Origin: Catajapyx aquilonaris
Lineage: Eukaryota
Assembly (NCBI GenBank): GCA_000934665.2
Contig: JYFJ02004329.1
Coordinates: 1 to 33,147, forward strand
Reading direction: 5' to 3'
DNA length: 33,147 nt
The position numbers were made by a program, and so were the translations under genes. The notes beneath the pieces were generated by a model. It was not told where the DNA came from, ran no database searches, and saw only the letters and a program-made list of their open reading frames with translations. This document shows, piece by piece, positions 838 through 32,413 of the stretch (its first letter is position 1; each line of letters opens with the position of its first letter).

Positions 838-840
<3 letters not shown>

Positions 841-4715: not shown

Positions 4716-7700
4716 TCAGTCTTGATCTAATGTTATCATCAGAACCTGCAAGCAACAATACCGATCATTGTTCTATTCGGCTATTAACTAAAAGAGAAAT
4801 GTAATAACAAATTTCTACAACTTATTGATGCCTTTCTACCCTTCCATCACAGTCTGATTTGTATCGTATACACTCTGAAGTGCAGTCCACAAGCATTGCA
4901 CACCAGCTTGCCTTAGTTCCCCTGCCATTGGAATGCGGTACTTGTTTTGCAGTTGGAGCAGCGCAATGTTTTTCCCTGTTGTTGCAAGCACACAGGATAA
5001 TCTTTTTCCATTTCATTACAAGACTTTTTTTGACCTACCAACTCTATGGATTAAGCTGTTGGTGTACGTACAGTACTACGGCACTGCATTTTAAAAATTA
5101 TCATTACATTAACCTTGCTGGCAACACATAAAAGGGAAAATGCAATTCTAGAATATCTTGGGGAAGCCAGCATCCCTGCAGTGAGCACAATCCTACACTG
5201 ACAGGAAATATCATCAGTGGTATCGAACCCTCACCCTCAAGTAGCTTATTTTCATTAGTGTGTTCAGTAATTTCTCCTCACCTTCGTTCCGTCATTCCTC
5301 CTTCCATCTGAGTCCTGATTTGGTGGATTCATCTGACTCTTGGAGAGGAGGTGGGGTCGAATGTATCTGATCCAGTACCACACTGTGGTGGTGCTGAGAC
5401 AGAATTTCCTGGCAGTTGCTTCCAGGTTGTGACGACACGAGGAATCTCCAAACTCGAATGCGTCCAGCACCTTCCTCTTCAAGTCCATCGACTGGGTGAG
5501 GGACCCAGAGGGTTCCGCTTCCCTCTGGGGAGGCTGAACGGGAAGAGGAAAAAAAAGTAATTTATTAATCACATAAGTTTGCAGTTGGCAAGTATCCGAA
5601 TCCTTCCTGCATATAACTCTGCAGCATGTTCAATGTTAATCCTTCAGAGTGGTTAGCAAACCTTCTTTTGCATTATAAGCCGTGACTTTGGATCAGTTAC
5701 ATTTAAATGTTATCACATTTAATGAGCTGCAAATGTTAGGTGGAATATGTGCATCATTCTATTGTCTTGCAATCTGCATTTTGCACCCCCATCACCGAAT
5801 AATATGATGATTCAGTTTCTTACCATTGTTTCATCGCTTGTTCTTTCCTCAGCTTTTCGCCTTGGTTGGCACGTCTGACTTTGGGCTGGGGAGGCCAGGA
5901 GATGTGGTCGGAGGAGCTTCACCCAACCCCACACTGTCACTTGTGGTAATCCAAACTTCCTTGCAGTTGACCTCATGCTGTGACGACACTTGGAATCACC
6001 AAACTCGTAGGCATCCATCACTTTCTTCTTGAAATCCAGTGACTTGCGTCCTCTCACTCGCCCTGAAGTAGGCTGCACAGGTGAGGGAAGAGACAAGATT
6101 GTTTCTCACTAATGAGGCACTTGTTGGACCAAGACATTTTAAAAATGTAGTGAGGAGGAACGTCGAGTACGCTGATGGCCGGATAGGCAGCTAAGTGTTT
6201 ATTACAACATCACAGTATCCTTGGACCGTCACCTGAAGAGGACCACTGGTCCCTGCCAACTCTTGCTTTATTACCTTCTTTCCTGCTCCCTTCTGTTTCA
6301 ATCCATCATCAGGCAAGGTGGATCCATGTTCCCCATCATCAGGCGGGAAGACATCCGAATTGGCATTAACACATCTCGTCTCCTTCTGCAACCAAGCATC
6401 AATAACACGTGAGGATTTTGATTGATTTGCATCCGAAGCATGACTTCATGAATTCTGCAGGCAGCCTCAGATAGAAAGTCTGCAGGTTTCAATATACTTC
6501 CTCAATACACTCGACTACACAACCCACAATAAGTGCCCAGCTTCAGCTTATTGTTTTCAATGGAAGAGATTGGTGCAAAAACTGGATATAAGGCCACATT
6601 TGGCCGAAGATGACTTATGGGTGGTGCTGCCCACGTGGGGCCATTCTGCATCTTTTGGTAAAAAAATCAGGTCTGTGAGGCCATCCACTGAGGAAGTACA
6701 GACCTTCCCGAAATTTTATTAGGACCACCCCACATCCAAAGGTTTTTAATTTCTACCGGCCCCTTTGACAAAGTTTGTCAAAGCGGCCAGTCCAAACCAA
6801 ATCTCTTCATGTTCGTGACAAACACAAACAAACAATGACATCATACGTTTGGCGAAGAAGTCATGCCTGAATGTGACATGCATTGATGTAAGTCATTAAA
6901 GTGGAGCAGGACGTCTGAACAGAGTGATGAGGTGTCTGATAATGAATGATGTGATGATTTTGTAACACTAAATATGCCTATAACTCAGAAAAAAAGTTTG
7001 TTGATGTTCATAGCATACACAAATATATTTTATTTGGACATGTCTGGTTCTCTCATCCGGTGCAAAAACAAGACATGCCCACATTATATTGTACTGTAGA
7101 ATGTGTAATACGCATCGTACAAACTTCATATTTTGGTGCGGATTGACTTTGGAATCATCCTATTCAACAAAAAAAATATCCTACGAAAAACTCTTTAAAT
7201 TTGTCAGAAATCCAGTTTTTATTTGTTTACTTGAAGTGCTGTACTCAAAAATCACGTTTATTTATCAGTTACCTCATTGAGTGTAACATCCTCTTTGCTG
7301 AATGATCCGATATACCTTTTTCCTATTCCCTAACATCCGATGAGCATCTTCCTTTCGTCTGCAGGCACGGAGGTGAGGTCGCATGGATTTCACCCAATGC
7401 CTCACAGTCCATGTGCTTACTCCAAACGTATTTGCAGTTGCTCCTACATTGTAACGACATTTGGAATGGTCAAACTCGTACGCATCTAGCACCTTTTCCC
7501 TGAAAGCCAGTGAGTAGGTGCGTTTCTTGTTCACAGAGATTGGCTGCAATAGAAAAATGTCAGTGATCAGTGATATGGTAGGCCTGTACCATATATATTT
7601 TTAAAGGCATAATTCCTACCAGTTAATGATGGGAAATGAGACTTACCATTGGTTTTGGCTCCTTGTCCTTTGCACTGGACATCTTGAGGTCATCAGGAAG

Positions 7701-9457
7701 GATCTTGTCCTCACTGCCTCCCTGGCTAATAAGTTCCGTCATCTTGACCAGAGCAACCAGTTTTGACTTCCTTACTCTCGCTGGCACCTCCTCCTAACAA
7801 AGTACGGATTTTACTTTAACCTTGCAAAGGGAAATGCAACTGTGGAATATCACAACAAGTCATTCCCGAAGAAGTGTGTTCTTACCTTTCGCAAACTGAG
7901 ATTTGAATATCCTCGAGATGCTTTTGAATTGCTTGTACCGTACTCATCTTTTTCATCGTTCATCTGAAGAGGAACAGTTATAAAATTTGTCTCGTGCTGC
8001 AAAATTTCCTTTTCACCTTTCTTTGCGTCCTCTTCCTTCCTGATCTCTTGTTGGGAGTGGTGTGTTTGTGTGCAGGTTCCACACCAGCCTGGATGTCACT
8101 CCTGTCATCCAAGTCGAAGTCACTCCCACACGTGTCTTCAACTACTGTTTCCATCACTTCAGGCTGCTCTGCTCTTATACCTTGGACTCCCTGAAATACC
8201 ACAATGATGCTTAAAATAGGTTCAGTGAACATTTCTGTGCATTTGCATTGCCCTAGCATTTCTTGACATCAAAAACTATGCAGCTCCAGTTCAATGTGTT
8301 GCTGGATTAGCTTCAGCTCACATCACAATAATTATTTCTAATGAGGTTGTTTACTCTACATTCAGTTGAGTTCCATAATGTTCATTAATAATTAGGGTTC
8401 ATATTTACACAGGCAAGTGACACGAACACACAGTATATTGAATGGTTGCCAATTTTGTGTGTCTGTAATTAACTGATGACCCTTACGTCCGCACGTGCTC
8501 CGTTCCGTCCAGGCCAGCCGTCAATGGAAATAAATTCGAATGAAGGTTCAGAGTCTCCTGGCAGGCCACCATCACCACCACAGTCCAGGCTGGAGCCTTC
8601 CTTCCTCTCAGGCGACTGCACTTCCTGAAACCAGGCAGCAACTGTTACGACATCTCTATGCAAAGAAGGGCATGGCCTAAACACTGCAGGATTAATCCCA
8701 CGTGGGCCATTGCCGGGAGATTTGTTGCATGAAGCTGCGCAACTGCAAGAGATAGTTGCTCACCACAATGACTTGCTCAGAGATTCCTTGTCATGAGTGA
8801 TGGCCACCCCCTGTGGCAATTTATTGTTCCAGGACACAGAAGGATGGGCCTAGTGCATCCAGCCTTCAATCTTTTTTGCTGTAACAGTACTCTTTGTATT
8901 CCTGCACAAATCTTTGTGAAATCCATTCAATAATACCCCAATTCTTCAACATGACTGCTTGTCTAACGCATACACTTGAATTCGGGATCTCAATAATTAT
9001 TGTGACGCCTGGCGTGTTGATCCTCCCATTCCGTTGATGATAATAACGGGTTCAAGGATGAAAGCCCGACCCTTTGGATATCGGACTTACAAAACTGGGC
9101 CACAACCCTCCATGCATTACATGCAATAGCTCTACAGAACCCTGTGGTCCCAAGGAATGTGGTGGGCCATCAAGCAGGAAAATGGGATTAAACCTGCTGG
9201 CCGTGTACCTGATCCCCTGTACGTCTCTCGTCCGTCTCTGTCTCCTCCGTTGTTACGACCACCCTTCCACCGGTCCATCCTTCCTCTTCCTCCTCCTGAG
9301 GCTCGACCTTCACAATGTCTGAAGGGCCATGGATGAACTGGTGGGCCCTCAGCTGGATCCTGGTCCTGAAGGTGGCGTCCAGGCAGTACACGCACCTGAA
9401 CTGCCCTTCTTCAGTGACCATGCGGCTTGGTCCATGCTGTGGCTGGTGGAGGCTCAT
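4716..9457 (-). CDS. Gene A: C2H2 zinc finger + 3 Brinker-type HTH domains (~550 aa if all exons are joined)
   Basis: Predicted exons, all AG/GT bounded and phase 0: 9457-9209 (MSLHQP..CVYCLDATFRTRIQLRAHQFIH), 8624-8487, 8190-8017, 7963-7886, 7793-7647, 7543-7316 (HTH), 6385-6275, [6232-6191 stop exon], 6072-5824 (HTH), 5533-5282 (HTH), 4745-4716 (tentative last exon VLMITLDQD*). A 5'UTR exon donor GTGAGT is at 9547-9542. Confidence 0.8.
5282..5533 (-). CDS. Gene A HTH exon A3 (constant terminal Brinker-type domain)
   Basis: 252 nt, cag|CCT..AAG|gtgagg; SMDLKRKVLDAFEFGDSSCRHNLEATARKFCLSTTTVWYWIR. Confidence 0.85.
5824..6072 (-). CDS. Gene A HTH exon A2
   Basis: 249 nt, cag|CCT..ATG|gtaaga; SLDFKKKVMDAYEFGDSKCRHSMRSTARKFGLPQVTVWGWVK. 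Confidence 0.85.
7316..7543 (-). CDS. Gene A HTH exon A1
   Basis: 228 nt, cag|CCA..AAG|gtatat; YSLAFREKVLDAYEFDHSKCRYNVGATANTFGVSTWTVRHWVK. Confidence 0.85.
9209..9457 (-). CDS. Gene A first coding exon, single C2H2 zinc finger
   Basis: F-x-C-x2-C-x4-F-x5-L-x2-H-x3-H pattern (FRCVYCLDATFRTRIQLRAHQFIH), then VKVEP and an acidic run. Acceptor at 9463, donor CAG|gtacac. Confidence 0.85.
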
Positions 9458-10183
9458 CTTCTCTGCAGGAAGAAGAGGCCTGTGCACATCCAGAACAATG
9501 TATTCAGATGCACATGAGAAGGCAGCGCAGTTGGTTCACACACTCACCAGACAAGAAGAAGACTCTTCAGGTCCAGTGGAGTAGTAAGATGAGATAAGAG
9601 AAAAGGGGGGAAAAAATAGATAAGATAAAGGAAAGTAAAGAGATGCAGATATACCCAGAAATAGCGCAACATATCCCTCCAAATTAAACTGATAGGTCAT
9701 CCACCGATATCAAGGGAAAGGAGGTTCAAAAACAGGCCATCAGCTTCCTCTGCCTTTCAGCTTAACCGCCAGTTATGCCACTATTAATGGCCTAGCCAAT
9801 CTCACTGCCGTCGTTTAAGGCCCCCCCACTTAAATTATTATTACAGAAAACGCTTATTATGACCAACCTTGGTAAAAAGGTTATTGCTCATTGAACCTCT
9901 TCACAAGTTGTCCACAACGCAAATGATGATGACAGTCGGTGTTTACGACAAACCTAACCCCTTCTCAAGAACGGTTTTGATTATTACATAATTATGCAGT
10001 ATATGAAAGTAAAATCATACTACATTTATTTTGTTCCACACGTGTACAGAGAGAGGAGGGATTCAATCAAGTACTCAGGAAAATAAATAAAAAAAACAGT
10101 TGGTTTGCATAGCAAGAATGACACTTACTGGACAAGTGAGCATTTCAGCACAAGTATACCCTTGTCAGGAAGCATCCAAGTCT

Positions 10184-11751: not shown

Positions 11752-14700
11752 TCAGTCTTGATGTAGTATCGTCATCAGACCCTGCAAGAAACAACATGGA
11801 TCACTGCTGCATACATGTATAACAATAACTTTCTATAACTTATTGATGACATTCTACCCTTCCATCACAGTCCGTCATTGGAATGCGGTACTTGTTTTGC
11901 AGTTGGAGCAGTGCAATGTTATTCCCTGTTGTTGCAAGCACACAGGGAAATCCTTTTCCATGTCATTACAGGACATTTTTTCGACCTACCAACTCTATTC
12001 ATTAAGCTGTTGGTGTACGTGTAGTACTAGGGCACTGCATTTTAAAAATTATCATTACACATATAAAAGGGCAAAAGCAATTCTAGAATATCTTGGTGAA
12101 GCCAGCACCATTGCAGCTTGCTTGCTTGCAAGTACTTGAGCACAATCCTACCTACACTTGCAGGAAATATCTCCAGTGGTATCGAACCATCACCCTTAAG
12201 TACAGCTTATTATCATTAGTGTGTTCAGTAATTTCTCTTCACCTTTGTTCCGTCATTCCTCCTTCCAGCAGAGTCCTGATTTGGTGGATTCATCTGACTA
12301 TTGGGGAGGAGGTGGGGTCGAATGTATCTGATCCAGTACCACACTGTGGTGGTGCTGAGACAGAATTTCCTGGCAGTTGCTTCCAGGTTGTGACGACAAG
12401 AGGAATCTCCAAACTCAAATGCGTCCAGCACCTTCCTCTTCAAGTCCATCGACTGGGAGAGGGACCCAGAGGGTTCCGCTTCCTTCTGGGGAGGCTGAAA
12501 GGGGAAGGGAAAAAATAATAATTCAAATATCACACATATGTGCAGTTTGCAACTATCCAAATCCTTTCTGCATATAGAGCATGTTCAATGTGAATTCTTC
12601 AGTGGTTAGCGAACCTTCTTTTGCATGATAAGCAGTAACTTTGGATCAGTTACATTTAAATGTTATCACACTTATTAGCTGCAAATTTTAGGTGGATTAT
12701 ATGTGTTTATTATCTGGAAATCTTCATTTTGCTCCTCCATGTCTTTTGTAACAGAGAGTACGCTGATGGCCGGATATGCAGCTAAGAGTTAATGGTAATA
12801 TCATTTCCTCCTTGGACCATCATCTGAAGAGGATCACTTTCTCTCGTTCCTCCCTCCTACAAAATCTGGCCTCACCTTCTCTCCTGTTCCCTTCCGTTTT
12901 GCTCCCTCAGCAGGCAACGTGGACCTGGATGCCTGTTCCCCATCTGGTGCGAGGTCACCTGAGTTGGCATTACCATATCTGGTCTTCTTCTGGAACCAAC
13001 CATCATGAACACATGAGTTATTTGAAGATTAAGTTACAGCTGAAGCATGGTTTCAAGCTCACTTCAGGCAGGTTCAAATAGAAAGTCAGCCAGGAGAGAT
13101 ACGAAAACATGTCGGTAAGGGTTCACTTTAGCCCCGCCAAAACAGTGCAGGTGTCTATACATTTACTTAGTCTACTCAACGAGCTAAGTTGACTGGCACT
13201 ATTCCTAGGGTGGAGAAACCTTTACTTCAAGAGTAATTATTGAGTTGTGAAATTGCACTTAATTAACAATCAAAGAATGACAAGAAACCGGTGTTCCTTT
13301 GTTGAAGCTGTTTACTCCTGTTGTTGCATGAGGGCATCCCCATTGTAATTTGAAAAGTAATTTGCAGGCTGTGCATCCACAACATTGCTGTCGGTCTTGT
13401 GGACAGTGTTGGGTAGGATCTAGATCCCAAACGCGTGATCTATGATCTGATCTAGGTACTTTTAAAACTGAGTATCTGTACTTGTATCTAGATACTTTTT
13501 TTTATGGGATCTACGATCTAGAGATCTGAATTTTCCAGATCATGTCTTTTTTTCGAAATGTTCCTGATGCTCAAGTCATCTTCAAAAGATTATGTCAAGT
13601 CTAGGTAAAAAAAGGGGACCGAAGATGGCAAGTCAATATAATTATGTCAAAATTTGCAAGTTTATATTATTTTTTAAATCACGGAATGTATTTTTAAAAA
13701 GAACTGTGTAGGCCTGGCCTATTAATTGGATAAGCTTGTGTTTTTCAATTATACAAGTTCTCGTCTATTATGTAATTCATGCTTGTCAAAATATAGACTA
13801 ATATGTATGGGACATGCTGGGAATTTCATGATTTATTGACTAGGCCTGTATGTTTCAACTATTTTTATGCGTGTGAAATTATTCTATGTACTTATTCTAA
13901 TATTTTCAATTGCAAGGTCATTATTATTGACACATTCATCAATGGCGGATCTTTTCTCAGTGTTTTCTCTTGCAATTTAGCAATATGCCCCTGGGGCGGG
14001 TGGCAGACAATATTCAAATTCCCTGTATCCCTCTTCACTTGAACTAAACTGCTAATTGACGTAAATCACTTTAGGTTGTGCCGTGATCTGAAATCTGATC
14101 TAGATCCTTTAGAATTGAGAGATCTGAACTGGGATCTAGGTACGAAAACGCTGAAGTATCTGGGATCTGATCTAGATACATTTTTGGGTGATCTTTCCCA
14201 ACACTGCTTGTGGAGCAGTAGATGTTGCCTGAGGTGGCTCTGGCAAGGCCACAACAACGTTTGTTGACTGATTGTTAATTCATTGCAATTTCAGAAGTCC
14301 AAAACTTTTGAACCAAAGGTTTCTGCAACATACGAATAGAATCATTCGACGCAGCTCATCAAGTGGATTCCGGAAATCTATAGAAACGTGTAATAAAATA
14401 TAAAATAATTTATTTGGACATGTCTGGTTCTCATTCAGTGCTAAAACAAGACTTTGTCCCCATTATACTTCACTGCAGAATGTGTAATCGTACAAACGTC
14501 ATATTCCAGTGCATGTTGACTTTGGTATCATCCTATCCAACAAAAAATTATCATTAGAAACATTTTTGAAATTTTCCGGGAATTCAGTTTTTCCTTGTTT
14601 TCTCGAAAGTAACAAAACTGGACTTATCCTGTTTTTCCACCAAACCCTTCAATTCTTACCAGTGGTCCCTTCTTCTTGGCACTGGATGTCTTGCGGTCCT

Positions 14701-20700: not shown

Positions 20701-23700
20701 GTAACAAAACTGGACTTATCCTCTTATCCCACCAAACCCTTCAATTCTTACCAGTTGTCCCTTCTTCTTGGCACTGGATGTCTTGCGGTCCTCACTGCCT
20801 GCCTGACTCTGTCCCATCACGTTAACCCGAGCAACCAGTTTCGATCTGCTTGCTCTCGACGGCACCTAAACATGACAGGATTTTACTCAAATTTGCAAGG
20901 GGGAATGCAACTTTGCAATCACAAGCACTCCTCACTGTTGTGTTTACCTACATTTTGCAACCTTGGTTTTGAAACATCTCGAGATGATTTAGAATTTGTT
21001 GCGCTGCAGTCATCTTCTTGGACTCTCACCTGAAAAGGAATACATAGTTTAAAATCCTTTGTCTTGTCACAAACTCTCATCTGACCTTTCTTTGTGCTCT
21101 CTTCCTTCCTGCTCTCTCGTTGGGAATGGCGTGTTTGGGGCCAGGTTTCACACCAGTCGTAACTTCACCCCTCTTGTCCAAGTCGGAGTCACTGCCACAT
21201 GTCTCTTCCTGGAAACAGACAACAATGAAGTGAGGCCTTTGAAAAGGAATTGCGGCCCATCTCACAACCAAATTCTCTTCCACAAGAAACACTTCCTTAG
21301 CTGAGAGACTTGAACTTGTTCAAACTGAATTCCTCATAGGGGTTAGCATGTTTTTCAAATGTATAAACAGTATGAACCAGTCACATGGTTATCAGAAATA
21401 TTAGTTGTCAATGTTAGGTCAAACACGCACGTCCCTTGTCAATCTGGGAATCCGTATTTTTTTTTCTGCCATCACTGAGTAATCTTAAGAGTTCATTTCT
21501 TACCCTTGCTTTGTCATTTGCTCTTTCCTCAGCGTCTTGTCTTGGTTGGTGCATCTGACCTTGGGCTGAAAGGCCATGGAGATGGGGTCGGAGCTGCTTC
21601 AGCCATATCCACAACAATCCCTGGCTTAGGCCAAACTTCCTTGCAGTTGCGCTCTGGTTGTGACGACATGGGGAATCACCAAACTCATAGGCATCCAGAA
21701 CTTTATTTTTAAAGTCCAGAGAGTGATTTGATCTCTGTCTTTTCACACTCTCCTTGATTTCCTGTGGAGGTGGTGGAAAATTCAAGGTGTATATTTAGTG
21801 TATGTAATCTGACTAGCAGCCCAAAAGAAGTCAGAAATGTATGGGTGAGAAGTGTGAGCCCAGAGGGATTCAAAAACATGTACTGTACAGTAGAACCCCG
21901 ATTATCCTGGTTCTTCTCTATAACGAAAATAATATAATCTTTAAAAATAAATCCCTTGTGGGCATATCAGTGGCTTCATTATTGTGGTATTAAATTACTT
22001 TGCTTTCAGTCTGCCCTCTTTGGCATTAAAAATTGCTCACATTCTGGGTGCCTTTTCTATTGCTTTGAACTGCCCCCCTAACTGCCCAAGAACAGACTTT
22101 GAATGGATTCTCGTCTCATTCATGCCAAACACAACCTGCCAGCATCCCTTCTTACTCTTAGGGAATCAAAGGAGCAAAGGGCAACCTGCATTTCATGGAA
22201 TTGGCATTTCTGCAAGTCCCAGCAGAAGTGTGGTGATTTAGGAAAATAATAGTTCATTAACCCCCTCATTTCATGACTCGTCCTTTCACGAGTGCCTCGC
22301 CTTGATTGGTACGTACCTGACGCTGGGCTGAACGGGCAAGGCGACTTTGTCGGAGAAACTTCACCCACTGCCACACTGTTATTGGTGGCAAGCCAAACTT
22401 CCTTGCAGTTTCAGTGACATTGTGACGACATTTCGAATCACCAGACTGGTAGGCTTCCAGCACTTCCTTCTTGAAATCCAGTGAATAAAAAGGTGACTTG
22501 CGGATTTCCAGTTTCCCTGACTTTGGCTGCGGAAGAGGTGGAAAACAAACATCTTGAACATAATATATTGTCAATGCAATCTCGCTCTTTCTTTCTTTCC
22601 AGCACTGATGGGGCATGTGGCAGATTTATTAATCACTACCCGTGATCTTGAATCCATCTTAATAATCTGATGAGGCTTACCTTTTTCCTATTCCCTAACA
22701 TCTGATGAGCATCTTCCTTTGGTTGGCAGGCATGGAGGTGAGGTCGCATGGTTTTCATCCAACGCCTCACAGCACTTTCCTGTATTCCAAACTTTCTTGC
22801 AGTTGCAGCCACATTGTGATGACACTTGGAATCACCAAACTCGTACTCATCAAGCACCTCTTCCCTGAAGGGCAGTGAGTGGATGTGTCTTTTGTGGGTT
22901 GTCCCTTTTCCAGAGGTTGGCTGCAACAGATATTTATAAAAGTAGAAGAAATCTGACATCGTCAGTCATCAAGTTAACATCATTGCCCAAGGTGCTGGCC
23001 TGAGGCATCGTTTTTTTTTAAAAAATGTAATTTCTTCCTGTTCATGATGGAAAACGAATTCGAACATATTTCGAATCATTACACCTCAACTGTGCAAGAT
23101 CAATTATTTATAATGATTGTCCCAAACCCTAACTACATCAACACTCTCGCAACCAAGGCAACAGTGCATAAACTCGAAATTCGTACAAAGTACAGCCCTT
23201 TGGTACAGCCAATGTGAGTTCAAGACACTGAACGAAGTACCGAGACCACGTAGAAATTGTTATAACACATGGGGGCCAATCAGCGCGAAGCAGCCGCGTC
23301 ACATCACCCAGATGACGAAATCTCCCGCTCATTATGAAAAGAGGCACGCTGCATGGGGAAACAGGCTTTGTGCCTGCGATTAGAGACGGATTACTCGAGT
23401 TACGTGCCAGTACACGGCAGATGCTGGAGGACAGGGATGTGCCCAGTACTCACCCATCACTGTCGCCCACCACCGGAGTGCAAACGCCCGGGTTGGACCC
23501 ACTTCCTTGGCGCGCCTGACCCCACCGCTTCCCTTTCCTTCTAGTCCGACATTTTTTTTTTTGACAGAATGGGGAACTAGCCTTGGTCTGGGATTTGGGA
23601 TTTTTGTTCATAACTAGCTAGCCCATGCCCGTAAACATACATTCCATCACTCTGTTGCATCAAAATGACATTACTGGATAAATTACGGCACATTTAAAAG

Positions 23701-26700
23701 TGCCTTCAAAATTGGCGGGAAAAACGCGGCGGCCAATCGAAAGGGTACACCGAAATGCCTGGTTGACTGCGAGATATGAGGAATTTGGCTTTGAATTAAC
23801 CGCGGACACGACGGAAAGCATTCGCAAGGCGGCTGTAGGCCATCGACGTGGAGAAGGGGGGCCTTCATGTGCCGAATTCGGGTGACAGATAATTCCGACC
23901 TGGTGGCATCACTGCCACATACAAAGCGGCTTGAGCGACCTGGAATAAATACGCGCCCCGGCCGCTATCTTGCTCACGGAATGGGACGGTTGCTAACAAC
24001 AGCGAAGTATTTTACAACAATGATGGGGCGCGTTCTATAACATCATTTTTGCGTTCATTTCACTTCGCGTGACGTCAATATTTTCCAGGCAAACAGTGAC
24101 GTCACCATTTGCCTACGAAAAAACGCCAATATCTCCGGAACTGAAACTGATATCTTAAAACGGAATATGCCAAAAAAATCCAAAAAATATGGGCGAATTT
24201 ATTATGTAGTTTCCAAAATGAAGGCTACTTCCCCATTATGCACTTTGAGCCTAAATCGATTTTTTACCGCGTTCTGGGCACCTTGTGGAGTTTTGTCAGG
24301 GTTAGACTAACTACCAAAAGTTTCGGGTAATTTTTGTACAGCCACGCAAAGTTAGTGGAAATCGCGTGTTTGCGGCGTATCTGATGGGGTGCGGTAGTCA
24401 TTTCGGGGTCATTTCCTAAGTTTTCAGGGTTGAGGAACCCAATTCTGACATTTCCAAATCCCTCAGAGGCCAACTTTAGTTGTGCAGAGAGCATGATTTC
24501 CGATCGGAGCTGGCTGTCGTCTACCGACATCCACACCTTCTGCGATGATGATGAAATTAAGATGCTTGCACATTTTACCGAGTTATGGTGTTTCAATGAC
24601 CTCATATGGAGTAAATCAAACAGTAACTGACCATCCCCTATCATATTGCATGATTTTGGAATTGCCCCGTATGGAGCAATTCCAACGCTTGCTGGGAACA
24701 ATGGTTACAATGTTTTCTCAGCTATTTTCCTTTTAACATAAAATAAGTAACGAGCTGAGTAGAGAAGAGCTTCTTCCTAGGGATGTATGCACCGTACTCC
24801 CGATTATTCGTGGTTCGGATAATCTGGGCATCGCCAAAACAAAATAAAACAAAACAAGTCCGGAAAATGTCGATATTTCTGGCATACAGAGAAATTTAAC
24901 AGACTTTTGTAGAAGGCAAACTAAAGATCTATGGAAAGTTTTATAATTTTTATTTAATCTGATTTAAAGCAGCATAGACTACAGTAGTAGACATTAAAAG
25001 AGTGTAAGTTGCATCAAAAACCTGTGAATGGCTCATTGTTACGATTCTATGACCATTTTCCAATTATTTTCTGATTATCCGCTGACACCTGTGGTTTGCA
25101 AATATGACTTGTGGTAGAGAGACACAGTAGTCAATAACATTAAAAAAAAAACGTCAGTGACATAGCAAAAGAGGTGGATGGCAGATGCCGGTAGACGACA
25201 GCCAGCTCCAATAGGAACTCATGCTCTCCGCACAACGAAAGTTGGCCTCCGAGGGTTTCGGAAATGTCAGATTTGAGTTCCTCGACCTTGAAAACTTAGG
25301 AAATGACATCGCAATGACTACCGCACCTCATCAGATACGCCCCAAACACTTGATTTTCACTTACGCCGTTTTGTGCCAACCTCTCCAGGCCCTCCAGGAA
25401 TCGATTTTTGGTGATATGATAAGCACTCTCTCCCAGACAAATGGTCACAGTATTCTTGTCAACAATGTCCTTGAAATGGTGTTGGTGACAGGATGTTTCC
25501 ATGGATCCGGGTTAAGATGATGCCACACCCGCCGTACCACCTCGGACTGGCTCCCAGTGACTTTTACCTGTTCGGATCCATGGAAACACCCCTTCCCCAT
25601 TGCCATTTCGAGGACATTGTTGAACAGGAAGCCTTGTCCAGGAGTGGACAAGCCGAGCCACCAAAAAGTGGTGCCTGGAGGGGTGTGGCAGCATAACACC
25701 CGTGGTGCCAGTGCATTAGGCTCCAGGAGGAATCTCTCGATAATGAGTGCCCACCTGACCTGTGAGAGCCCTGTATTTTTGGCAAAGAAATAAACTCGTC
25801 CTGTTGGCATAGACTTGGCATTTCAGCAAGTCCCAACAAACGTATGATAATTAAAAAAATATTTCCTTTACCCTCATTTCATGAGATTCATGATTGCCTC
25901 GTCTTGATTTGTAGGCCTGACTCTGGCCTGATCGGGCAAGGAGACGGGGCAGGAGAAACTTGACCCAACCCCGCACTGTTGGCATTGGTAATCCGAACTT
26001 CCTTGCAGTTGCCCTCATGTTGTGACAACATGAGGAATCACCAGACTCGTAGGCCTCCAGTACTTTTTTCTTGAAATCCAGGGAGTATTGAGATGACGTG
26101 CGGATATGCAGATTGCTGGAGTTTGGCTGCAAAAGAGGTGGAAAACAAACATCTCAGTATATGTCTTTCCAACATTGATCTCTTTCTTTGCAGTACTCAA
26201 GCATGTTGCAGATTTACTAATTATCCTGAGTGATGTTGAGTCCTCATCCTTTTTGTTTAATAATCTGATGAGGCTTACCTTCGTCCCATTTCTTGACATC
26301 TGATGACCGTGTTCCTTTGGTTGGCAGGCAAGGAGGTGAGGTCGCATGGCTTTCACCCAATACCTCAGACCAAATGTGCTTAGTCCAAACTTCCTTGCAG
26401 TTGCATATGCATTGTGACGACATTTGGAATTGTCAAACTCGTAGACATCAAGCACCTTGTTCTTGAAGGCCAGTGAGTAGCTGTTTTGCTTACGAGTTGG
26501 CCCTTTTCCAGAAGTCTGCTGCAACGGATATTTCAAAGTAGAGGATATATGACCTCATCTGCTAAAGGCAGGCCTGTAGCATATTTTGTAATAGCATAAT
26601 TTCTTCCTGTTCATGATGGAAAACGAATTCGAACATATTTCAAATTGTTACACCTCAACTGTGCAAGATCAACTATTTATAATGATTGTTCCAAACCGGA

Positions 26701-29700
26701 ACTACATCAACAGTCTCGCAACCAAGGCAACAGTGCATAAACTCGAAATTCGAACAAAGTACAGCCAATGTGAGTTCAAAACACTGAACGAAGCACTGAG
26801 ACCACGTAGAAATGTTATAACACATGGGGGCCAATCAGCGCGAAGCACCCACCACCGGAGGGCAAACGCCCGGGTTGGACCCACTTCCTTGGCGCGGCTC
26901 ACCCTGCCACTTGCCCGTCCTTCCAGTCTGACATTATTTGTTTTTGACAGAATTATGCACTTTGAGCCTAAATCGATTTTTAGCGATTTCTGGGCACCTT
27001 GTGGAGTTTTGTCTGGGTTAGACTAACTACCAAAAGTTTTGGGTAATTTTTGTACAGCCACGCAAAGTTAGTGGAAATCGCGTGTTTGGGGCGTATCTGA
27101 TGAGGTGCGGTAGTCATTTCGGGGTCATCTCCTAAGTTTTCAGGGTCAAGGAACTCAATTCTGACATTTCCAAATCCCTCAGAGGCCAACTTTCGTTGTG
27201 CGGAGTGCATGAGTTCCGATCGGAGCTGGCTGTCGTCTACCTCCATCCACGCATTCTGCGATGATTATAAAATTAAGACATTTGCACATTTTACAGAGTT
27301 ATGGTGTTTCAATGACCTCCTCTGGAGTCAATCAAACAGTAACTGACCATTCCCTATCGTATTGCATGCGGTTGGAATTGCCCCGTATGGAGCAACCACG
27401 GGTGTGCCAACCTCTCCAGGCCCTCCAGGAACCTATTTTTGGTGATATGACAAGCACCCTCTCCCAGACAAATGGTCACAGCATTTTTGTCAACAATGCC
27501 CTTGAAATGGTGTTGGTGACGGGATTTTTCCATGGATCCCGGTTTAGATGAGTCCCCATCCTTTTTTGTTTCATAATCTGATGAGGCTTACCTTTGTCCC
27601 ATTCCTTGACATCCGATGACCATGTTCCTTTGGTTGGCAGGCAAGGAGGTGAGGTCGCATGGATCTCAACCAAAGCCTCACAGCCCATTCACTTATTCCA
27701 AACTTCTTTCCAGTTGCAGTTGCATTGTGACGACATTTGGAATTGCCAAACTCGTAGACATCAAGCACCTTATTCATGAAATCAGCCAGCGAGTGGGTGC
27801 GTGCCTTATGGGTTGTCCCCTTTCCAGAGGTCGGCTGCAACGGATATTTAAAAGTAGAGGATATATGACCTCATCTGCTCAAGGCAGGCATGGCGCATAT
27901 TTTTTAACAGCATAATTTCTTCCTATTCATAACAGAAAATGAGGCTTACCATTGATTTTGGTCCCTTGCCCTTTGCACTGGACGTCTTGAGGTCATCGGC
28001 TAGTATCGTGTCCTCACTGCCTGCCTGGCTCTGTTTCGTCATCTTGACCCACGCAAGCCGCTTCGATTTCCTTACTCTTGCTGGCACCTCCTCCTAAACA
28101 AGCGGGGATTTTACTTTAACATTGCAAAGGGAAATGCAACTGTGTGGAATCACAACAAGTCATTCCCGATGAGGTGTGTTCTTACATTTTGCAAACGGAG
28201 ATTTGAAACTTCTCCAGATGCTTTTGACTTTCTTGTACTGTACTCATCTTCTTGGACAGTCACCTGAAAAGGAATAGTTTCAATTTTGTCTCTTACTACA
28301 CACTCGCATCTCACCTTTCTTTGCGTCCTCTTCCTTCCTGATCTCTCGTTGGGAGTGGTGTGTTTGGAGGAAGGTTCCACACCAGCCTGGATTTCACTCC
28401 TGTCGTCCAAGTCGGAGTCACTCCCACATGTGTCTGCAACTATTGTTTCCATCACTTCAGGCTGCTCTGCTCTTACACCTTGGATTCCCTGAAATACCAC
28501 AATGACGCTTAAAATAGGTTCAGTGAACATTTCTCTGCTTTTGCATTGCCCTAGCATTTCTTGAGATTAACAACTATGCAGTTCCAGTTCAATGTGTTGC
28601 TGGATTAGCTTCAGCTCACATCACAATAATTATTTCTAATGAGGTTGTTTACTCTACATTCCATAATGTTCCATAATGTTCCATAATGTTCATTAATAAT
28701 TAGGGTTCATATTTACACAGGCAAGGGACACGGACACACAGTATATTGAAGGGTTGCCAATTTTGTGTGTCTGTAATTAACTGATGACCCTTACTTGATC
28801 CGCACTTGCCCTGTTCCTTCCAGGCCAGTCGTCAATGGAAATGAATTCGAATGAAGGTTCAGCGTCTCCTGGCAGGCCACCATCACCACCACAGTCCAGG
28901 CTGGAGCCTTCCTTCCTCTCAGGCGACTGCACTTCCTGAAACCAGGCAGCAACGGTTATCTATCAACAGTCTCTACGCAAAGAAGGCCATGGCCTAAACA
29001 CTGCAGAATAATCACACGTGGCCCAATACCGGGAGATTTGTTGCATGCAGTTGCGCAACAGCAAGAGGTAGTTGCTCACCACAATGACTAGCTCAGAGAT
29101 TCCTTGTCCTGAGAGGCACAGTGGCCATCCCCCCGTGTTGCAATTTATTGTTCCAGGACACAGAAGTGACGATGGGCCTTCAATCTGTTTTTCACTCTAA
29201 CAGTACTCTTTGTATTTCTCCACAAATCCTTGCGAAATCCATTCAATAATACCCCAACATTTAAACATGACCAGCTTGTGTGATTCACCCACTTGAACTG
29301 GAATCTCAATTATTGTCATGGCTGAGCTGTTGATACTCCTGTTTGGGTGATGGGTTCAAGGATGAAAACCTGACCCTTTGGATATTGTACTTATGAAAAT
29401 GAGCCACAACCCTCAATACTTTCCATACTATATTTGGACAGCTCTGCAGAACCTAGTGGTGACTAGGAACAGGCAATAGTGACCTGGACACATGGTGCAC
29501 TGAAGGGTTGCCACTTTTGCGTCTCTGCCATGAAGAGACCCTTACCTCGGCATGTGCCCTGTTCCGTCCAGGCCAGCCGTCAATGGAAATGAATTCGAAT
29601 GAAGGTTCGGCGTCTCCTGGAGGGTCACCACCACCGGAGCTCAATATGGACTCTTCCTCCTTCTGGTGCGACTGATCCCCTCCTCTAGTTGGTCTCTCCT

Positions 29701-29881
29701 GCTCCGCTGCATCCTCCTCTGGCTCCACCTTGACCTTGTCCCTGGGCCCGTGTACGAACTGGTGTGCCCTCAGCTGCAGCCTGGTCCTGAAGGTGGCGTC
29801 CAGGCAGTAGACGCACCTGAACTGCCCTTCTTCGGTGGCCATCAGGCTTGGTCCTGGTTGGGGCTGGTGGAGGCTCATCAT
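11752..29881 (-). CDS. Gene B: C2H2 zinc finger + 11 Brinker-type HTH domains (~1,560 aa if all exons are joined)
   Basis: Predicted phase-0 exons: 29881-29546 (ZF), 28935-28795, 28488-28315, 28263-28186, 28093-27950, HTH B1-B6, linkers 21208-21086, 21029-20952, 20865-20752, 20354-20181, 20128-20051, 19960-19817, HTH B7-B10, linkers 15106-14984, 14927-14850, 14773-14660, 12989-12876, [12823-12782 stop exon], HTH B11 12494-12243, tentative last exon 11781-11752 (GLMTILHQD*). Only one ZF/start exon is present, so I treat this as one gene. Confidence 0.75.
12243..12494 (-). CDS. Gene B HTH exon B11 (constant terminal domain)
   Basis: 252 nt; domain core identical in protein to A3 (..KFCLSTTTVWYWIR). 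Confidence 0.85.
13404..14206. mobile_element. Non-autonomous hAT element
   Basis: TIR CAGTGTTGGG...CCCAACACTG; 8-bp TSD CTTGTGGA at 13396-13403 and 14207-14214; dense subterminal GATCT/TATCT repeats at both ends. Confidence 0.9.
14660..15106 (-). CDS. Gene B linker exon trio (123, 78, 114 nt), second duplication unit
   Basis: EETCGSDSDLDD..RAQRK | VGVQEDDCSASNSK..LKN | VSLRATKSKL..KKKGPL; paralogous to 20752-21208. Confidence 0.7.
15330..15539 (-). CDS. Gene B HTH exon B10
   Basis: 210 nt to donor CAG|gtacgt, or 261 nt to the donor at 15279; YSLDFKKKVLEAYQSGDSKCSHNVTATARKFGLPQVTVWKWVR. Confidence 0.82.
15703..15942 (-). CDS. Gene B HTH exon B9
   Basis: 240 nt; HSLAFREEVLDAYEFDNGKCRHNLHATAIKFGISEAAVRRWVK; donor AAG|gtaagc. 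Confidence 0.85.
16440..17257 (+). mobile_element. Degenerate non-LTR retrotransposon (LINE) ORF2 fragment: pre-RT region and start of reverse transcriptase
   Basis: ISVQELKSALVALKTSSSPGIDSIPNVLLK..VPESW..VPIYKKG..PGNY, a frameshift, then RPISLTCTLGKIL..EEQAAFRPGYSTLDHLFTL; typical LINE RT N-terminal motifs. Stops and frameshifts present; left boundary approximate. Confidence 0.88.
17289..17630. mobile_element. Degenerate pogo/Tigger-like MITE (partial paralog at ~24790-25090)
   Basis: TA|CACTGTACTCCTGATTGTCC...GGAAAAACGGGAGTACTCG|TA imperfect TIRs; internal GGATAATC/GATTATC motifs. Confidence 0.4.
18085..18462. mobile_element. Two inverted degenerate mariner transposase C-terminal fragments
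   Basis: Plus strand carries a frameshifted YSPDLAPSDF-like motif and ..VQEW..WCQCIRL; an inverted, diverged copy lies at 18085-18230. Paralogous to 25375-25745. Confidence 0.65.
18603..18857 (-). CDS. Gene B HTH exon B8
   Basis: 255 nt; YSLDFKKKVLEAYESGDSSCRHNMRATAKKFGLPKGTVQRWVD; donor AGG|gtaaag. Confidence 0.85.
18923..19369. mobile_element. Foldback MITE with ~190-bp arms
   Basis: CAGGGAGCATATACTACATAAGAGGCGCAAAC ... GTTTGCGCCTCTTATGTAGTATATGCTCCCTG, flanked by a TTGC duplication. The paralogous intron at ~26190 is empty (TCTTTGCAGTACTC). Confidence 0.88.
19462..19701 (-). CDS. Gene B HTH exon B7
   Basis: 240 nt; HSLAFKNKVLDVYEFDNSKCRHNATATGKKFGIGHSTVRHWLK. Confidence 0.85.
19817..21208 (-). 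CDS. Gene B six linker exons (123, 78, 114, 174, 78, 144 nt) spanning the internal duplication junction
   Basis: All open, AG/GT bounded and multiples of 3; 20354-19817 repeats 28488-27950. Confidence 0.72.
21504..21761 (-). CDS. Gene B HTH exon B6
   Basis: 258 nt; HSLDFKNKVLDAYEFGDSPCRHNQSATARKFGLSQGLLWIWLK; donor AGG|gtaaga. Confidence 0.85.
22317..22526 (-). CDS. Gene B HTH exon B5
   Basis: 210 nt to donor CAG|gtacgt; YSLDFKKEVLEAYQSGDSKCRHNVTETARKFGLPPITVWQWVK. Confidence 0.8.
22681..22920 (-). CDS. Gene B HTH exon B4
   Basis: 240 nt; HSLPFREEVLDEYEFGDSKCHHNVAATARKFGIQESAVRRWMK. Confidence 0.85.
23571..24234. mobile_element. Non-autonomous DNA transposon, PIF/ISL2EU-like
   Basis: TIR GGGGAACTAGCCTT...AAGGCTACTTCCCC; 2-bp AT TSD, confirmed by the empty paralogous sites GAATTATG at ~26950 and ~16252. 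Confidence 0.8.
24236..25370. repeat. Composite intronic repeat with ~160-bp inverted segments (24361-24524 vs 25191-25355), probably a decayed non-autonomous DNA transposon
   Basis: GTAGACGACAGCCAGCTCC..GGAAATGTCAGA..TCAGATACG occurs on + at ~17897 and ~25191 and on - at ~24524 and ~27240. Confidence 0.7.
25375..25745. mobile_element. Two inverted degenerate mariner transposase C-terminal fragments
   Basis: Plus 25517-25745: PHPPYHLGLAPSDFYLFGSM..HFEDIVE..VQEW..WCQCIRLQ. Minus 25510-25375: GSMETSCHQHHFKDIVD..KNRFLEGLERLA. Confidence 0.75.
25872..26126 (-). CDS. Gene B HTH exon B3
   Basis: 255 nt; YSLDFKKKVLEAYESGDSSCCHNMRATARKFGLPMPTVRGWVK. Confidence 0.85.
26279..26518 (-). CDS. Gene B HTH exon B2
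   Basis: 240 nt, CAGCAG tandem acceptor; YSLAFKNKVLDVYEFDNSKCRHNAYATARKFGLSTFGLRYWVK. Confidence 0.85.
27592..27834 (-). CDS. Gene B HTH exon B1
   Basis: 243 nt, with an in-frame 3-nt insertion (HSLADF); ..VLDVYEFGNSKCRHNATATGKKFGISEWAVRLWLR. Confidence 0.85.
27950..28935 (-). CDS. Gene B linker exons 2-5 (141, 174, 78, 144 nt)
   Basis: Colinear with gene A exons 8624-7647; open frames and canonical splice sites. Confidence 0.78.
29546..29881 (-). CDS. Gene B first coding exon, single C2H2 zinc finger
   Basis: 336 nt; MMSLHQP..FRCVYCLDATFRTRLQLRAHQFVH..VKVEP..EPSFEFISIDGWPGRNRAHAE|gtaagg. Upstream UTR donor GTGAGT at 29955-29950. Confidence 0.85.
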
Positions 29882-31170
29882 CCCCTCTGCAGGTCTCCAC
29901 CTGTGCACATGCCCAAACAATGCAATTCGGAAGCACAAGAGGAAGCCAGACTCACCCGACAAGAAGAAGAAGACTCTTGAGGTCCGGAGGAGGAGAGAGA
30001 AGAATTAAATGATGGAATAAGAAGAGAGACGCTTGGTGGGAAGATCCTATCGACGCGAGACCTACCCGGCAATCGTCTATCGTCACACTCTTCCAAAATT
30101 ATGCCGGTAGGGCGTCCATCGATATCTGGCGGGATATACGTATTCGAACTGTTTGTTGTGGTCATCACTTCTTCTGGGTCACCACCTATTATCCCTTCTT
30201 TTTGGAACCCTTTTGTCTCTGACCCTTTGAAGCTAAGCTGGGGTTCCAGCGTCCGTGGTTCCAGGACCATTGAAACCCAGTGGAATTGAACCGCGCAGTC
30301 ACCTGTCAGTACCTGCCGTGCTCACTCAAGCGGGTTTCTCCTTCCTCTTTAATCGCAGAGAGACATGTCAAGGGGGGGAAAATGGCCTTCCCGATCCACG
30401 GTCATGACCTGGCAGTGTTCAAGGTCAGGTCAAACAGAGCAGTTGTGTCCAGTCATTTAAGAACTGTTCTGCGTGCCTGGTCCAATTTAGGTCCATGGCA
30501 CTCGCTTGAGAACGGACCAGGCAGTTGAAGTGACTGGGGAAATGAGGCTCAGTCATCGTCTGTTGATGAATTAGCTTTTCTTTCTTTCCTTTGGACAGGG
30601 CCTCTCTGGCCGACAACCTGCTTTCATCTCTCTTGTTCACTGCCTCTTCTCACCATTACAATTATGACGTTTCCCCGCTCCCTATAGTCAGACGGGTTGA
30701 AACAGCCAAGCAGAGTTGACCCATTGTGCAAGGAGAAAATTCCATGACTGCTGCAAAGGCATGCATTATTGTTGCACAGTGGTGCAGGGAGAAGAGGGAT
30801 TCAGGAGTCGCAGGTACGCAGGAAATGCACAGGAAGAAAGACAAAAAAAACCATTTAGAAAGTATGATATCTACTGGGCATGAGAGCATTTCAGTACACA
30901 GCTGCCTTCAGGAATCATATCCAAGTCTTTGTTCTCAAGATTAAAATAACAGGATCTTTATAATAATACAAAGGCACTTTCAATGGTAGTACAAAATATT
31001 GAGCAATAAACCAGACTTGATTGAGGGATCAGTACTTCACTTGCTCCTCGCCTACAGCGTGACTAACTACCACATGTGGCATGTCTCCTTATGTATGATG
31101 CATCACTGGGAAATTACACATGCAGAATGTGGCAACAAAGACTTCCACCTCAACATGGACTCCTTTACCT

Positions 31171-32413
31171 TCAGTCTTGATGTAGTATCGTCATCAGACC
31201 CTGCAAGAAACAACATGGATCACTGCTCAAAAATCATTATTAACTAAAAGATGATAATAATAATAACAACAACAACAACAACAACATCTTTCTACAACTT
31301 ATTGATGACATTATACAATTCTATTGCAGTCCAATTTGTACCGTGCATTTTGAGGCGCAGTCCGCAAGCATTGCACACACGCTAGGGGTTGTTCCTTCAC
31401 CATTGGAATGCGGTGCACTACTTGTTTTGCAGATGGAGAAGCAAGTGCAATGTTATTCCCTGTTGTTGCAAGCACACAGGATAATCCTTTTCAGAACAGG
31501 TAACTTTTTTCGACCTACCAACTCTATTCATTCAGCTGTTGTTGTACGTACAGTAATGTCAGTGCATTTTAAAAACTATTGTTACATTAACCTTGATGGC
31601 AACACATACACAGGCAACAGAAATGATAGAATATCTCTGTCAAGACAGGCCTGCTCACAAGTACTTGAGCACTACTCTGCACATGCAGGAAATGTTACTA
31701 GTGGTCGCGATTCATCATACTTCAATTATTTCCTCACCTTTGTTCCGTCAGTCCTGATTTGGTGGATTCATCTGACTCTTGGAGAGGAGGTGGGGTCGAA
31801 TGTATCTGATCCAGTACCACACTGTGGTGGTGCTGAGACAGAATTTCCTGGCAGTTGCTTCCAGGTTGTGACGACACGAGGAATCCCCAAACTCAAATGC
31901 GTCCAGCACCTTCCTCTTCAGGTCCATCGACTGGGTGAGGGACCCAGAGGGTTCCGCTTCCTCCTGGGCAGGCTGAACGGGAAGGAAAACAAAAGCAATT
32001 CAAATATCACACATATGTGCAGTTAACAAATCTTTTTTTTGCATTATAAGCAGTAACCTTGGATCAGTTACGTTTTAATGTTATCACACTTATTAGCTGC
32101 AAATGTTGGGTGGAATATGTGCATCATTTTATTGTCTGGAAATATGCATTTTGCTCCTCCATTTCTTTTGGAACAGAGAGTACGCTGATGGCTGGATAGG
32201 CGCAACTAAGTATTTACTATAATATCATGATCTCCTTGCACCATCATCTGAAGAGGATCACTTTTACTCGTTCCTCCCTCCTACAAAATCTGGTCTTACC
32301 TTCTTTTGCACTCCCTTCCGTTTTGCTCCCTCAGCAGGCAACGTGGACCTGGATGCCTGTTCCCCATCTGGTGCCAGGTCACCTGAGTTGGCATTACCAC
32401 ATCTCGTCTTCTT
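31171..32413 (-). CDS. Gene C, 3' portion of a third paralog (5' part outside the window)
   Basis: Exons 32413-32300 (KKTRCGNANSGDL..VQKK), [32247-32206 stop exon MMVQGDHDIIVNT*], HTH exon from 31972, and homolog of the last exon at 31200-31171. The block 30460-32690 is colinear with 11050-13260. Confidence 0.75.
31748..31972 (-). CDS. Gene C constant terminal Brinker-type HTH exon, ending ..NPPNQD* after a 17-nt deletion
   Basis: Reads PAQEEAEPSGSLTQSMDLKRKVLDAFEFGDSSCRHNLEATARKFCLSTTTVWYWIRYIRPHLL. Not listed in the ORF track. Confidence 0.82.
   Translation of the reverse strand, partial: PAQEEAEPSGSLTQSMDLKRKVLDAFEFGDSSCRHNLEATARKFCLSTTTVWYWIRYIRPHLLSKSQMNPPNQD

Follow-up and report, generated by a model that had tools for sequence, protein, structure and literature searches.

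Tandem genes of Catajapyx aquilonaris that may encode chains of Brinker-type helix-turn-helix modules behind a single finger

INTRODUCTION

What kind of protein is encoded when one putative DNA-binding fold recurs, exon after exon, in neighbouring genes? The question is raised by a 33,147-nt stretch of DNA from Catajapyx aquilonaris (GenBank assembly GCA_000934665.2, contig JYFJ02004329.1, positions 1 to 33,147 of the forward strand), the whole of which is referred to here as the window. An earlier note, made from the letters of this DNA, proposed that its minus strand carries 15 one-exon helix-turn-helix (HTH) cassettes sharing a motif taken for the Brinker DNA-binding domain. These were said to be split 3, 11 and at least 1 among three tandem paralogues headed by a single C2H2 finger, and to form a lineage-specific, copy-number-variable array that could be an analogue of tandem KRAB/ZAD zinc-finger genes. 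The computational analysis reported here indicates that the window probably holds a tandem, lineage-restricted family in which Brinker-type HTH modules are chained behind a finger-bearing trunk, with two complete genes and the 3′ end of a third.

RESULTS

Fifteen cassettes share a Brinker-type HTH domain

The list of stop-to-stop open reading frames (ORFs), complemented by targeted translation, yielded 15 cassettes, all on the minus strand and all within positions 4,716..32,413 (Table 1). Both the number and the split of 3, 11 and at least 1 copies among three tandem paralogues had been given correctly. A cassette profile was compared with the 1,133 six-frame ORFs of at least 20 residues in the window, and exactly the 15 cassettes were returned, at 118.7–134.4 bits; these scores are matches by construction, the profile having been built from the same 15 sequences. 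The next ORF scored only 8.0 bits, so that chance similarity is excluded and no decayed extra cassette copy was detected among the 1,133 ORFs. As a strict regular expression the motif originally written down fitted none of the 15 cassettes, but it is a fair consensus, with 21–26 of its 27 specified positions found in each. A tree of the 15 cassettes contained three clades, designated T, A (including a variant, A′) and B, with cassette 9 (A′) on a long branch.

The Pfam family BrkDBD (PF09607) was the top match for 14 of the 15 cassette ORFs, and 10 of the 15 scored at or above its curated cut-off of 23.4 bits (23.4–34.2 bits). When trimmed to the exon, all 15 cassettes matched BrkDBD at an expect value (E) of up to 1. 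Comparison of cassette 7 with PDB sequences placed Brinker (2glo_A) at the top, with E 1.8e-5, as the sole significant solved relative. The AlphaFold model of this cassette, made from 23 aligned rows, contained three helices (16–28, 37–44 and 48–58), with a predicted local distance difference test (pLDDT) score of 79–91 in the core and disordered tails. For this model 2glo ranked first both by Foldseek (probability 1.00, template modelling score 0.70 on the target, E 0.054) and by VIA-align (Z 6.3, root-mean-square deviation 3.3, 51 of 59 residues). By profile and sequence the identification of the cassettes as Brinker-type HTH domains is supported; in the fold comparison 2glo ranks first but is tied with other HTH domains. 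In the suggested profile scan BrkDBD was matched in all 15 cassettes and CENP-B_N, as a weak secondary match, in four of them. With E values of 1 or less allowed, the cassettes matched 12 families in all, and HTH_psq (PF05225) was not among these. Weak secondary Pfam matches of the cassettes went to transposase HTH families, and in the ESM Atlas cassette 7 found only generic transposase-type HTH clusters (0.88–0.90).

Residues of the scaffold that are common to the cassettes and 2glo in the alignment were retained. Helix 3 of Brinker (HRRQIQKW in 2glo) was not: only its Trp is invariant, and the other positions hold 2–9 different residues among the 15 cassettes. As these helix 3 residues are not kept, Brinker's own DNA target cannot be assumed for the cassettes.

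The presumed reading helix varies on a constrained scaffold

Variation was analysed over a 49-codon core. Six columns were invariant, and entropy peaked at columns 23–24, 34–35, 39 and 43, which by alignment with 2glo represent the start of helix 2 and positions four apart along helix 3. Variability was greatest at columns 35, 39 and 43, a spacing of four that corresponds to a single face of a helix. A reading region, consisting of helix 3 and two helix 2 positions, was defined by homology to Brinker. When five independent paralogue pairs were pooled, the nonsynonymous (dN) and synonymous (dS) rates in this region were 0.346 and 0.235 (dN/dS 1.47), compared with 0.087 and 0.215 (dN/dS 0.40) in the rest of the core. 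The two parts differed in nonsynonymous rate (Fisher's test, p = 3.7e-8) and in nonsynonymous against synonymous change (p = 0.016). In four young pairs, nonsynonymous change affected 23 of 102 sites in the reading region versus 78 of 966 in homologous introns (p = 2.3e-5). The presumed reading helix changes faster than the introns, and the scaffold is constrained.

A sliding window placed the densest 9-column amino-acid change at columns 33–43, and only 111 of 100,000 random 11-column sets reached the observed count of changes. Insertions and deletions were scarce, with two in 1,288 exon bases where 10.3 would be expected at the intron rate; of these two, one comprises an entire codon and one is situated beyond the probable donor. 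The proposed analogy with zinc-finger clusters gains support from this combination of a fast presumed reading helix and a constrained scaffold.

The T module behaves differently. Cassettes 1, 4 and 15 share one and the same 49-residue core (no amino-acid differences in the three pairs), with 2–3 synonymous differences, and their 14-residue N-terminal tails differ at 2–3 residues per pair. At the nucleotide level the T exon is 96.4–97.3% identical, versus 77–91% for the flanking introns. Helix 3 of T is aromatic and hydrophobic, and T has no basic arm of the kind that B and A′ have before helix 1. We infer that the T module may have a common role, possibly a non-reading one.

Predicted exons join into open frames

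All 15 cassettes are preceded by a pyrimidine tract and a CAG acceptor and begin on a codon boundary, and 13 of them have a GT donor at the aligned end, again on a codon boundary. Cassette 10 has TGA at the aligned donor; an in-frame CAG/GTACGT donor, common to cassette 5, lies 16 codons upstream. Trunk and linker exons likewise begin and end between codons. Because this holds for every predicted exon, modules could be duplicated, lost or shuffled without a break in the frame. Joined in silico, the predicted exons gave open frames of 437 residues for gene 1 (three modules) and 1,247 residues for gene 2 (11 modules), with no internal stop and isoelectric points (pI) of 9.33 and 9.78, respectively. 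Gene 3 is represented by its last cassette alone, as the remainder is past the window end. Each gene has a T cassette as its last, and this retains a good donor; if left unspliced, the frame stops six codons on in genes 1 and 2. In gene 1, exon 2 has an alternative GTAAGG donor 6 nt upstream that is equally in frame, and linker L1 is homologous to 28315-28488 and 20181-20354.

The tail of cassette 15 (31748-31777, minus strand) is without a short stretch, 17 bp by our reading, that is present in cassettes 1 and 4. Because this stretch is missing, TGA stands directly behind the domain, and the end of the gene 3 protein would be about 16 residues shorter.

The short motif PSFEFISIDGWPGRN occurs twice in gene 2, in exons 1 and 2, and in gene 1 in exon 2 only. 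Exon 1 of gene 2 may have taken in a copy of exon 2. No Pfam family matched the motif, nor did any match exon 2 or linker L1 of gene 1. Guanine plus cytosine content is 0.48–0.51 around the first exons (9000-10000 and 29000-30000) versus 0.35–0.45 elsewhere; these stretches may be promoter regions.

The N-terminal finger is a weak match

The single N-terminal C2H2 finger is weak. Its spacing, C-x2-C-x13-H-x4-H, is present in the two ATG exons, but the match to Pfam zf-C2H2_4 is below cut-off (E 0.022 for gene 2 exon 1 and 0.052 for gene 1 exon 1). The best PDB sequence matches were single fingers of ZNF347 (E 0.049) and ZNF224 (E 0.065), and C2H2 proteins made up eight of the nine weak PDB matches. 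Modelled with AlphaFold on the basis of two aligned rows, exon 1 reached a pLDDT of 46 and showed no secondary structure, so that the model was uninformative. No KRAB, ZAD, SCAN, BTB or other effector domain was found in Pfam scans of the trunk and linker exons at E up to 1.

No orthologue appears in a library of representative proteins

In a comparison of the cassette profile with 1.84 billion representative proteins, 217 matches had an E of 0.001 or less; 69 were left at 1e-10, and at 1e-30 there were none. The best were insect proteins (mayflies, damselflies, whitefly, cockroach and wasps; 7 of 10 named), several of them named brk or Brinker-domain protein. The top-scoring protein totalled 117.4 bits across three domains, and no single domain exceeded 47.8 bits. 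As this value is far under the 118–134 bits among the window's own cassettes, the library holds no orthologue.

Among the best 83 of the 217 matches, BrkDBD was the top family in 76, of which four have three stretches of the domain, 70 have two and two have one. More than three BrkDBD stretches occurred in none of these 83, and neither zinc fingers nor DDE domains were listed for them at an E of 1e-4 or less. The statement in the earlier note that Brinker itself has one copy is therefore too narrow for the family: brk of a damselfly and a mayfly carries three BrkDBD stretches, and 70 of the 76 BrkDBD-topped matches carry two. The other seven of the best 83 are generic HTH_23/HTH_28 arrays and were rejected as relatives. 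Multi-HTH proteins of this kind in the library (P0038, P0060, P0073, P0083, P0084 and others) have a mostly prokaryotic look; P0063 and P0081 look eukaryotic and hold 5–6 generic HTH repeats. P0081 has an additional C2H2-like finger near its C-terminus.

When ten short BrkDBD matches were looked up by name, one sandfly protein and no other taxon was identified. Word-index searches of longer proteins found nothing for the cassette 7 ORF and no relative of gene 2 exon 1, which represents the trunk, and no Rfam family reached its gathering score in the window. Literature searches on BrkDBD and the Brinker DNA-binding domain found no paper on such arrays. On these comparisons the family looks lineage-restricted, its module number varies between paralogues (3 vs 11), and 11 modules behind a finger is an arrangement without counterpart in the proteins and literature searched. 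The earlier note, which had recognised no described family with this architecture, is supported in all three respects.

Block duplication, relics and repeats

Self-comparison showed that gene 2 holds two copies, at 88–92% identity, of a block with the order L1-B-A ... B-A-L2 (Table 1). An extra B (cassettes 13 and 14) and an A′ (cassette 9) have no counterpart. The expansion of gene 2, from about 5 modules to 11, probably came about through duplication of this block within the gene together with smaller changes.

A GATA zinc-finger exon lies behind gene 1. With the stop read as X, it matched Pfam GATA (PF00320) at 38.7 bits and E 7.5e-10 (cut-off 26.8). A working finger is ruled out by the in-frame TAA, and the exon is a relic. 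Its counterparts behind genes 2 and 3, near 11880-11960 and 31330-31450, are shortened or have several stops and are more decayed. Because GATA remnants sit behind the stops of all three genes, the ancestral gene probably ended in a GATA finger.

Mobile and repetitive sequences are also present. The intron that separates cassettes 7 and 6 contains a fragment of a reverse transcriptase of the non-long-terminal-repeat type, encoded on the strand opposite to the genes. It matched Pfam RVT_1 at E 3.3e-6, under the cut-off; in the ESM Atlas its ORF found unnamed clusters and one RVT_1 cluster labelled Chordata, and nothing in a word-index search of longer proteins. The introns of gene 2 also contain three pairs of unclassified repeats, 90–92% identical, whose positions depart in part from the order of the duplicated block, so that they may represent a young interspersed element. 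The window further includes a perfect (TAA)n microsatellite.

Table 1. Features predicted in the window. Cassette exons were delimited by translation; where the position includes a stop, the limits of the cassette exon are given under remarks. A slash marks the boundary between exon and intron.
Feature	Gene	Position	Strand	Remarks
Exon 1	1	9209..9457	-	ATG and single C2H2-like finger C-x2-C-x13-H-x4-H; CAG/GTACAC donor between codons
Exon 2	1	8481..8624	-	conserved motif PSFEFISIDGWPGRN; TTTCAG acceptor, GT donor between codons
Linker exon L1	1	8017..8190	-	acidic Ser/Asp stretch, then basic stretch; splice sites between codons
Cassette 3, type B	1	7316..7543	-	BrkDBD 25.3 bits; clade B
Cassette 2, type A′	1	5824..6072	-	BrkDBD 20.5 bits, E 4.7e-4, under cut-off; clade A
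Cassette 1, type T, last, with read-through tail	1	5264..5533	-	cassette exon 5282-5533; AAG/GTGAGG donor kept at 5281/5282; stop 5264-5266; BrkDBD 14.0 bits
Exon 1	2	29540..29881	-	ATG, C2H2-like finger, own PSFEFISIDGWPGRN copy; 66% identical to gene 1 exon 1
Exon 2	2	28789..28935	-	inside 83%-identical block 7313-9110 / 27589-29414
Linker exon L1a	2	28315..28488	-	predicted exon
Cassette 14, type B	2	27592..27834	-	one-codon insertion in helix 1; BrkDBD 23.7 bits
Cassette 13, type B	2	26279..26518	-	BrkDBD 26.1 bits
Cassette 12, type A	2	25872..26126	-	BrkDBD 31.5 bits
Cassette 11, type B	2	22681..22920	-	BrkDBD 30.0 bits
Cassette 10, type A	2	22269..22526	-	probable donor CAG/GTACGT, last exon base 22317; BrkDBD 23.3 bits
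Cassette 9, type A′	2	21504..21761	-	BrkDBD 23.4 bits
Linker exon L2a	2	21086..21208	-	short form of L1; predicted exon
Linker exon L1b	2	20181..20354	-	92.5% identical to L1a
Cassette 8, type B	2	19462..19701	-	BrkDBD 32.2 bits
Cassette 7, type A	2	18603..18857	-	module modelled; BrkDBD 34.2 bits (ORF), 35.5 bits (exon)
Cassette 6, type B	2	15703..15942	-	BrkDBD 29.1 bits
Cassette 5, type A	2	15279..15539	-	probable donor CAG/GTACGT, last exon base 15330; BrkDBD 27.9 bits
Linker exon L2b	2	14984..15106	-	93.5% identical to L2a
Cassette 4, type T, last	2	12225..12494	-	cassette exon 12243-12494; stop 12225-12227; BrkDBD 13.5 bits
Cassette 15, type T, last	3	31748..31972	-	cassette exon 31751-31972; TGA 31748-31750; BrkDBD 14.9 bits
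Block duplication, segment 1	2	27549-28493 ~ 19419-20359		self-comparison
Block duplication, segment 2	2	25094-26191 ~ 17800-18922		self-comparison
Block duplication, segment 3	2	22191-23031 ~ 15207-16052		self-comparison
Block duplication, segment 4	2	20487-21293 ~ 14402-15191		self-comparison
Decayed GATA zinc-finger exon		4865..4960	-	about 300 nt behind gene 1 stop; in-frame TAA inside finger
Non-LTR reverse transcriptase fragment		16700-17346	+	intron between cassettes 7 and 6
Intron repeat pair	2	16149-16373/26848-27069		unclassified
Intron repeat pair	2	17251-17584/24750-25079		unclassified
Intron repeat pair	2	24235-24679/26952-27395		unclassified
(TAA)n microsatellite		840-913		perfect, 24.7 copies

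DISCUSSION

The family probably present in the window would encode basic proteins in which a short trunk, made up of a C2H2-like finger, a conserved motif and an acidic/basic linker, is followed by a chain of HTH modules, one per exon. The modules retain the fold-building residues and differ from one another where helix 2 begins and along a single side of helix 3, the parts with which Brinker reads DNA. Because the variation falls on these parts, every module would recognise a short DNA word of its own, and the array a long composite site. The invariant T module would perform a common task, for example anchoring or the binding of a partner. That the genes are transcribed, that a single mRNA includes every module, that the modules bind DNA and that the proteins act as repressors or against transposons are points that we infer only.

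Several observations weigh against this interpretation. The three T cassettes (1, 4 and 15) and cassette 2 are clearly under the BrkDBD cut-off (13.5–20.5 bits), and cassette 10 is narrowly so (23.3 vs 23.4 bits). The fold matches are weak in absolute terms, with a Foldseek E of 0.054 and a VIA-align Z of 6.3 that is tied with HTH proteins at Z 5–6.2, and the helix 3 residues HRRQIQK of Brinker (2glo) are lost. The reading region was fixed only after the variable columns had been seen, and its dN/dS of 1.47 is based on small counts, 35.7 nonsynonymous and 7.3 synonymous changes. Among the gene models, cassette 10 requires a donor other than that of its closest relatives, cassettes 7 and 12, gene 3 carries the tail deletion, and a motif scan found neither AATAAA nor ATTAAA within about 950 nt 3′ of any of the three stops. 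The finger is under every threshold, and the trunk model has a pLDDT of only 46. Brinker has CtBP- and Groucho-binding motifs, the patterns of which come from the Drosophila literature; neither these nor an eh1 motif was found in either conceptual protein by a pattern scan, which is a weak test.

The layout of the exons could be understood in another way. All 15 cassettes and the linker exons begin and end between codons, the cassettes are of three alternating types, and the three-module gene 1 shows a short form to be viable. The cassettes might then be alternative exons, with some, or one of several, used per transcript to give a repertoire of shorter proteins with differing reading helices. 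We consider this unlikely: the order of B, A and linker exons is fixed and was duplicated as a block, which fits constitutive units better than an interchangeable bank, and the full-length conceptual frame is open. It is a good deal less probable that the locus is a young graveyard, in which gene 3 and the internal duplication of gene 2 are unexpressed and function is confined to a short gene such as gene 1. Frame and splice signals have been kept in all 15 cassettes, insertions and deletions are depleted (2 vs 10.3 expected), and a scaffold dN/dS of 0.40 with changes concentrated in helix 3 is unlike neutral decay. Some decay is suggested by the TGA at the aligned donor of cassette 10, by the deletion and early stop in the gene 3 tail, and by introns rich in repeats and containing a reverse-transcriptase fragment; in young pairs, moreover, exon identity (88.7–91.4%) is similar to that of introns (89.5–92.9%).

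The modules might also have left DNA reading altogether, the Brinker-like fold being re-used to bind protein or RNA while its variable helix tracks a fast-evolving partner. Helix 3 without Brinker's basic residues, the aromatic and hydrophobic helix 3 of T, and the mere 13.5–14.9 bits of the T cassettes for BrkDBD would agree with this. We nevertheless think it very improbable, as the predicted proteins are basic (pI 9.3–9.8), B and A′ modules keep a basic arm ahead of helix 1, and the best fold matches are all DNA-binding HTH domains. BrkDBD occurs in Passer transposases and POGK (PMC7386202), and the weak secondary Pfam matches of the cassettes are to transposase HTH families, so the cassettes have to be considered as remains of pogo/Passer-type transposases and the array as transposon debris. 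Hardly any weight can be given to such an origin. Across 30 further ORFs in the window no transposase domain, DDE or otherwise, was matched at an E of 0.01 or less, and the one match of a related kind was a reverse-transcriptase fragment. The best 83 of the 217 library matches include 76 BrkDBD-topped, brinker-like proteins with 1–3 stretches and lack DDE domains, and the splice sites are regular and the genes ordered. A tandem family of chained Brinker-type modules remains the probable explanation of the locus.

How does such a family compare with known systems? The modules belong with insect Brinker (brk; 2glo) in one domain family by profile and sequence, 2glo also ranking first for the predicted fold, and Brinker-like proteins of non-dipteran insects already have two or three BrkDBD. 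Brinker proteins have 1–3 domains, whereas 3 and 11 are found here, each on its own codon-bounded exon. A C2H2-like finger stands at the N-terminus here and in none of the best 83 of the 217 matches. Helix 3 is variable in the cassettes and conserved (HRRQ[IV]QKW) in Brinker, and the pattern scan found no CtBP or Groucho motif here. The window genes were rejected as brinker orthologues: the best single domain reached 47.8 bits, the architecture differs and the trunk exon found no relative in the word-index search. Brinker itself folds on DNA (PMC8085671).

In their organization the genes resemble KRAB/ZAD C2H2 clusters: the tandem paralogues differ in module number (3, 11 and at least 1), and the residues presumed to contact DNA change quickly. 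Those clusters likewise consist of tandem paralogues of varying module number whose contact residues change fast on a fixed scaffold. Here, however, the module is an HTH and not a zinc finger, each module has its own exon whereas the whole zinc-finger array lies in one, and the exon scans found no KRAB, ZAD or other effector domain. In ZHX, two C2H2 fingers are followed by five homeodomains; these are conserved vertebrate genes of fixed domain number. They share with the present genes an N-terminal finger or fingers ahead of a chain of three-helix, HTH-type DNA-binding domains, but the domains are homeodomains and not BrkDBD, and there is no sign of diversifying modules in ZHX. Pipsqueak has four tandem psq HTH repeats and belongs to the psq/CENP-B/pogo HTH superfamily. 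Like the present genes, it places several HTH modules of this broad superfamily in tandem within a single protein; the present genes differ in having no HTH_psq match, no BTB, far more modules, and module sequences that diversify.

Lineage-specific expansions of HTH-psq and CENPB are described in PMC10027918. For BrkDBD itself, the available part of PMC4263296 reports 42 coding genes in the pufferfish Takifugu flavidus, 5 in Tetraodon and none in T. rubripes, a species-specific burst which indicates that the domain can expand quickly. Those figures are gene counts, and that part of the paper describes neither arrays of several domains nor one-exon modules nor a zinc-finger head. Of the 28 library matches looked up by name, most are nameless and none was identified as a fish protein.

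A broader proposal would be that the family is a third modular, evolvable DNA reader beside C2H2 arrays and TAL repeats. It would use chains of up to 11 Brinker-type HTH modules, with three to four hypervariable residues on one face of helix 3 per word, and would change by exon duplication in conflict with transposons or satellites. The invariant last module would supply a shared anchor or a point of contact for an effector. This we put forward tentatively, as a possibility that is open to considerable doubt.

To our knowledge, fast-evolving arrays of DNA-binding modules come almost only from C2H2 zinc fingers. If the interpretation as chained Brinker-type modules is true, an HTH family with tandem genes, changing module number and variable contacts would mean that the design is not tied to the zinc finger, and would offer a second natural system in which long DNA words are read by chained modules. 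Since every module occupies an in-frame exon of its own, the locus is a very clean example of how an array grows through duplication of exons and blocks. The view of the Brinker domain, commonly regarded as the single-copy domain of one developmental repressor, would change as well.

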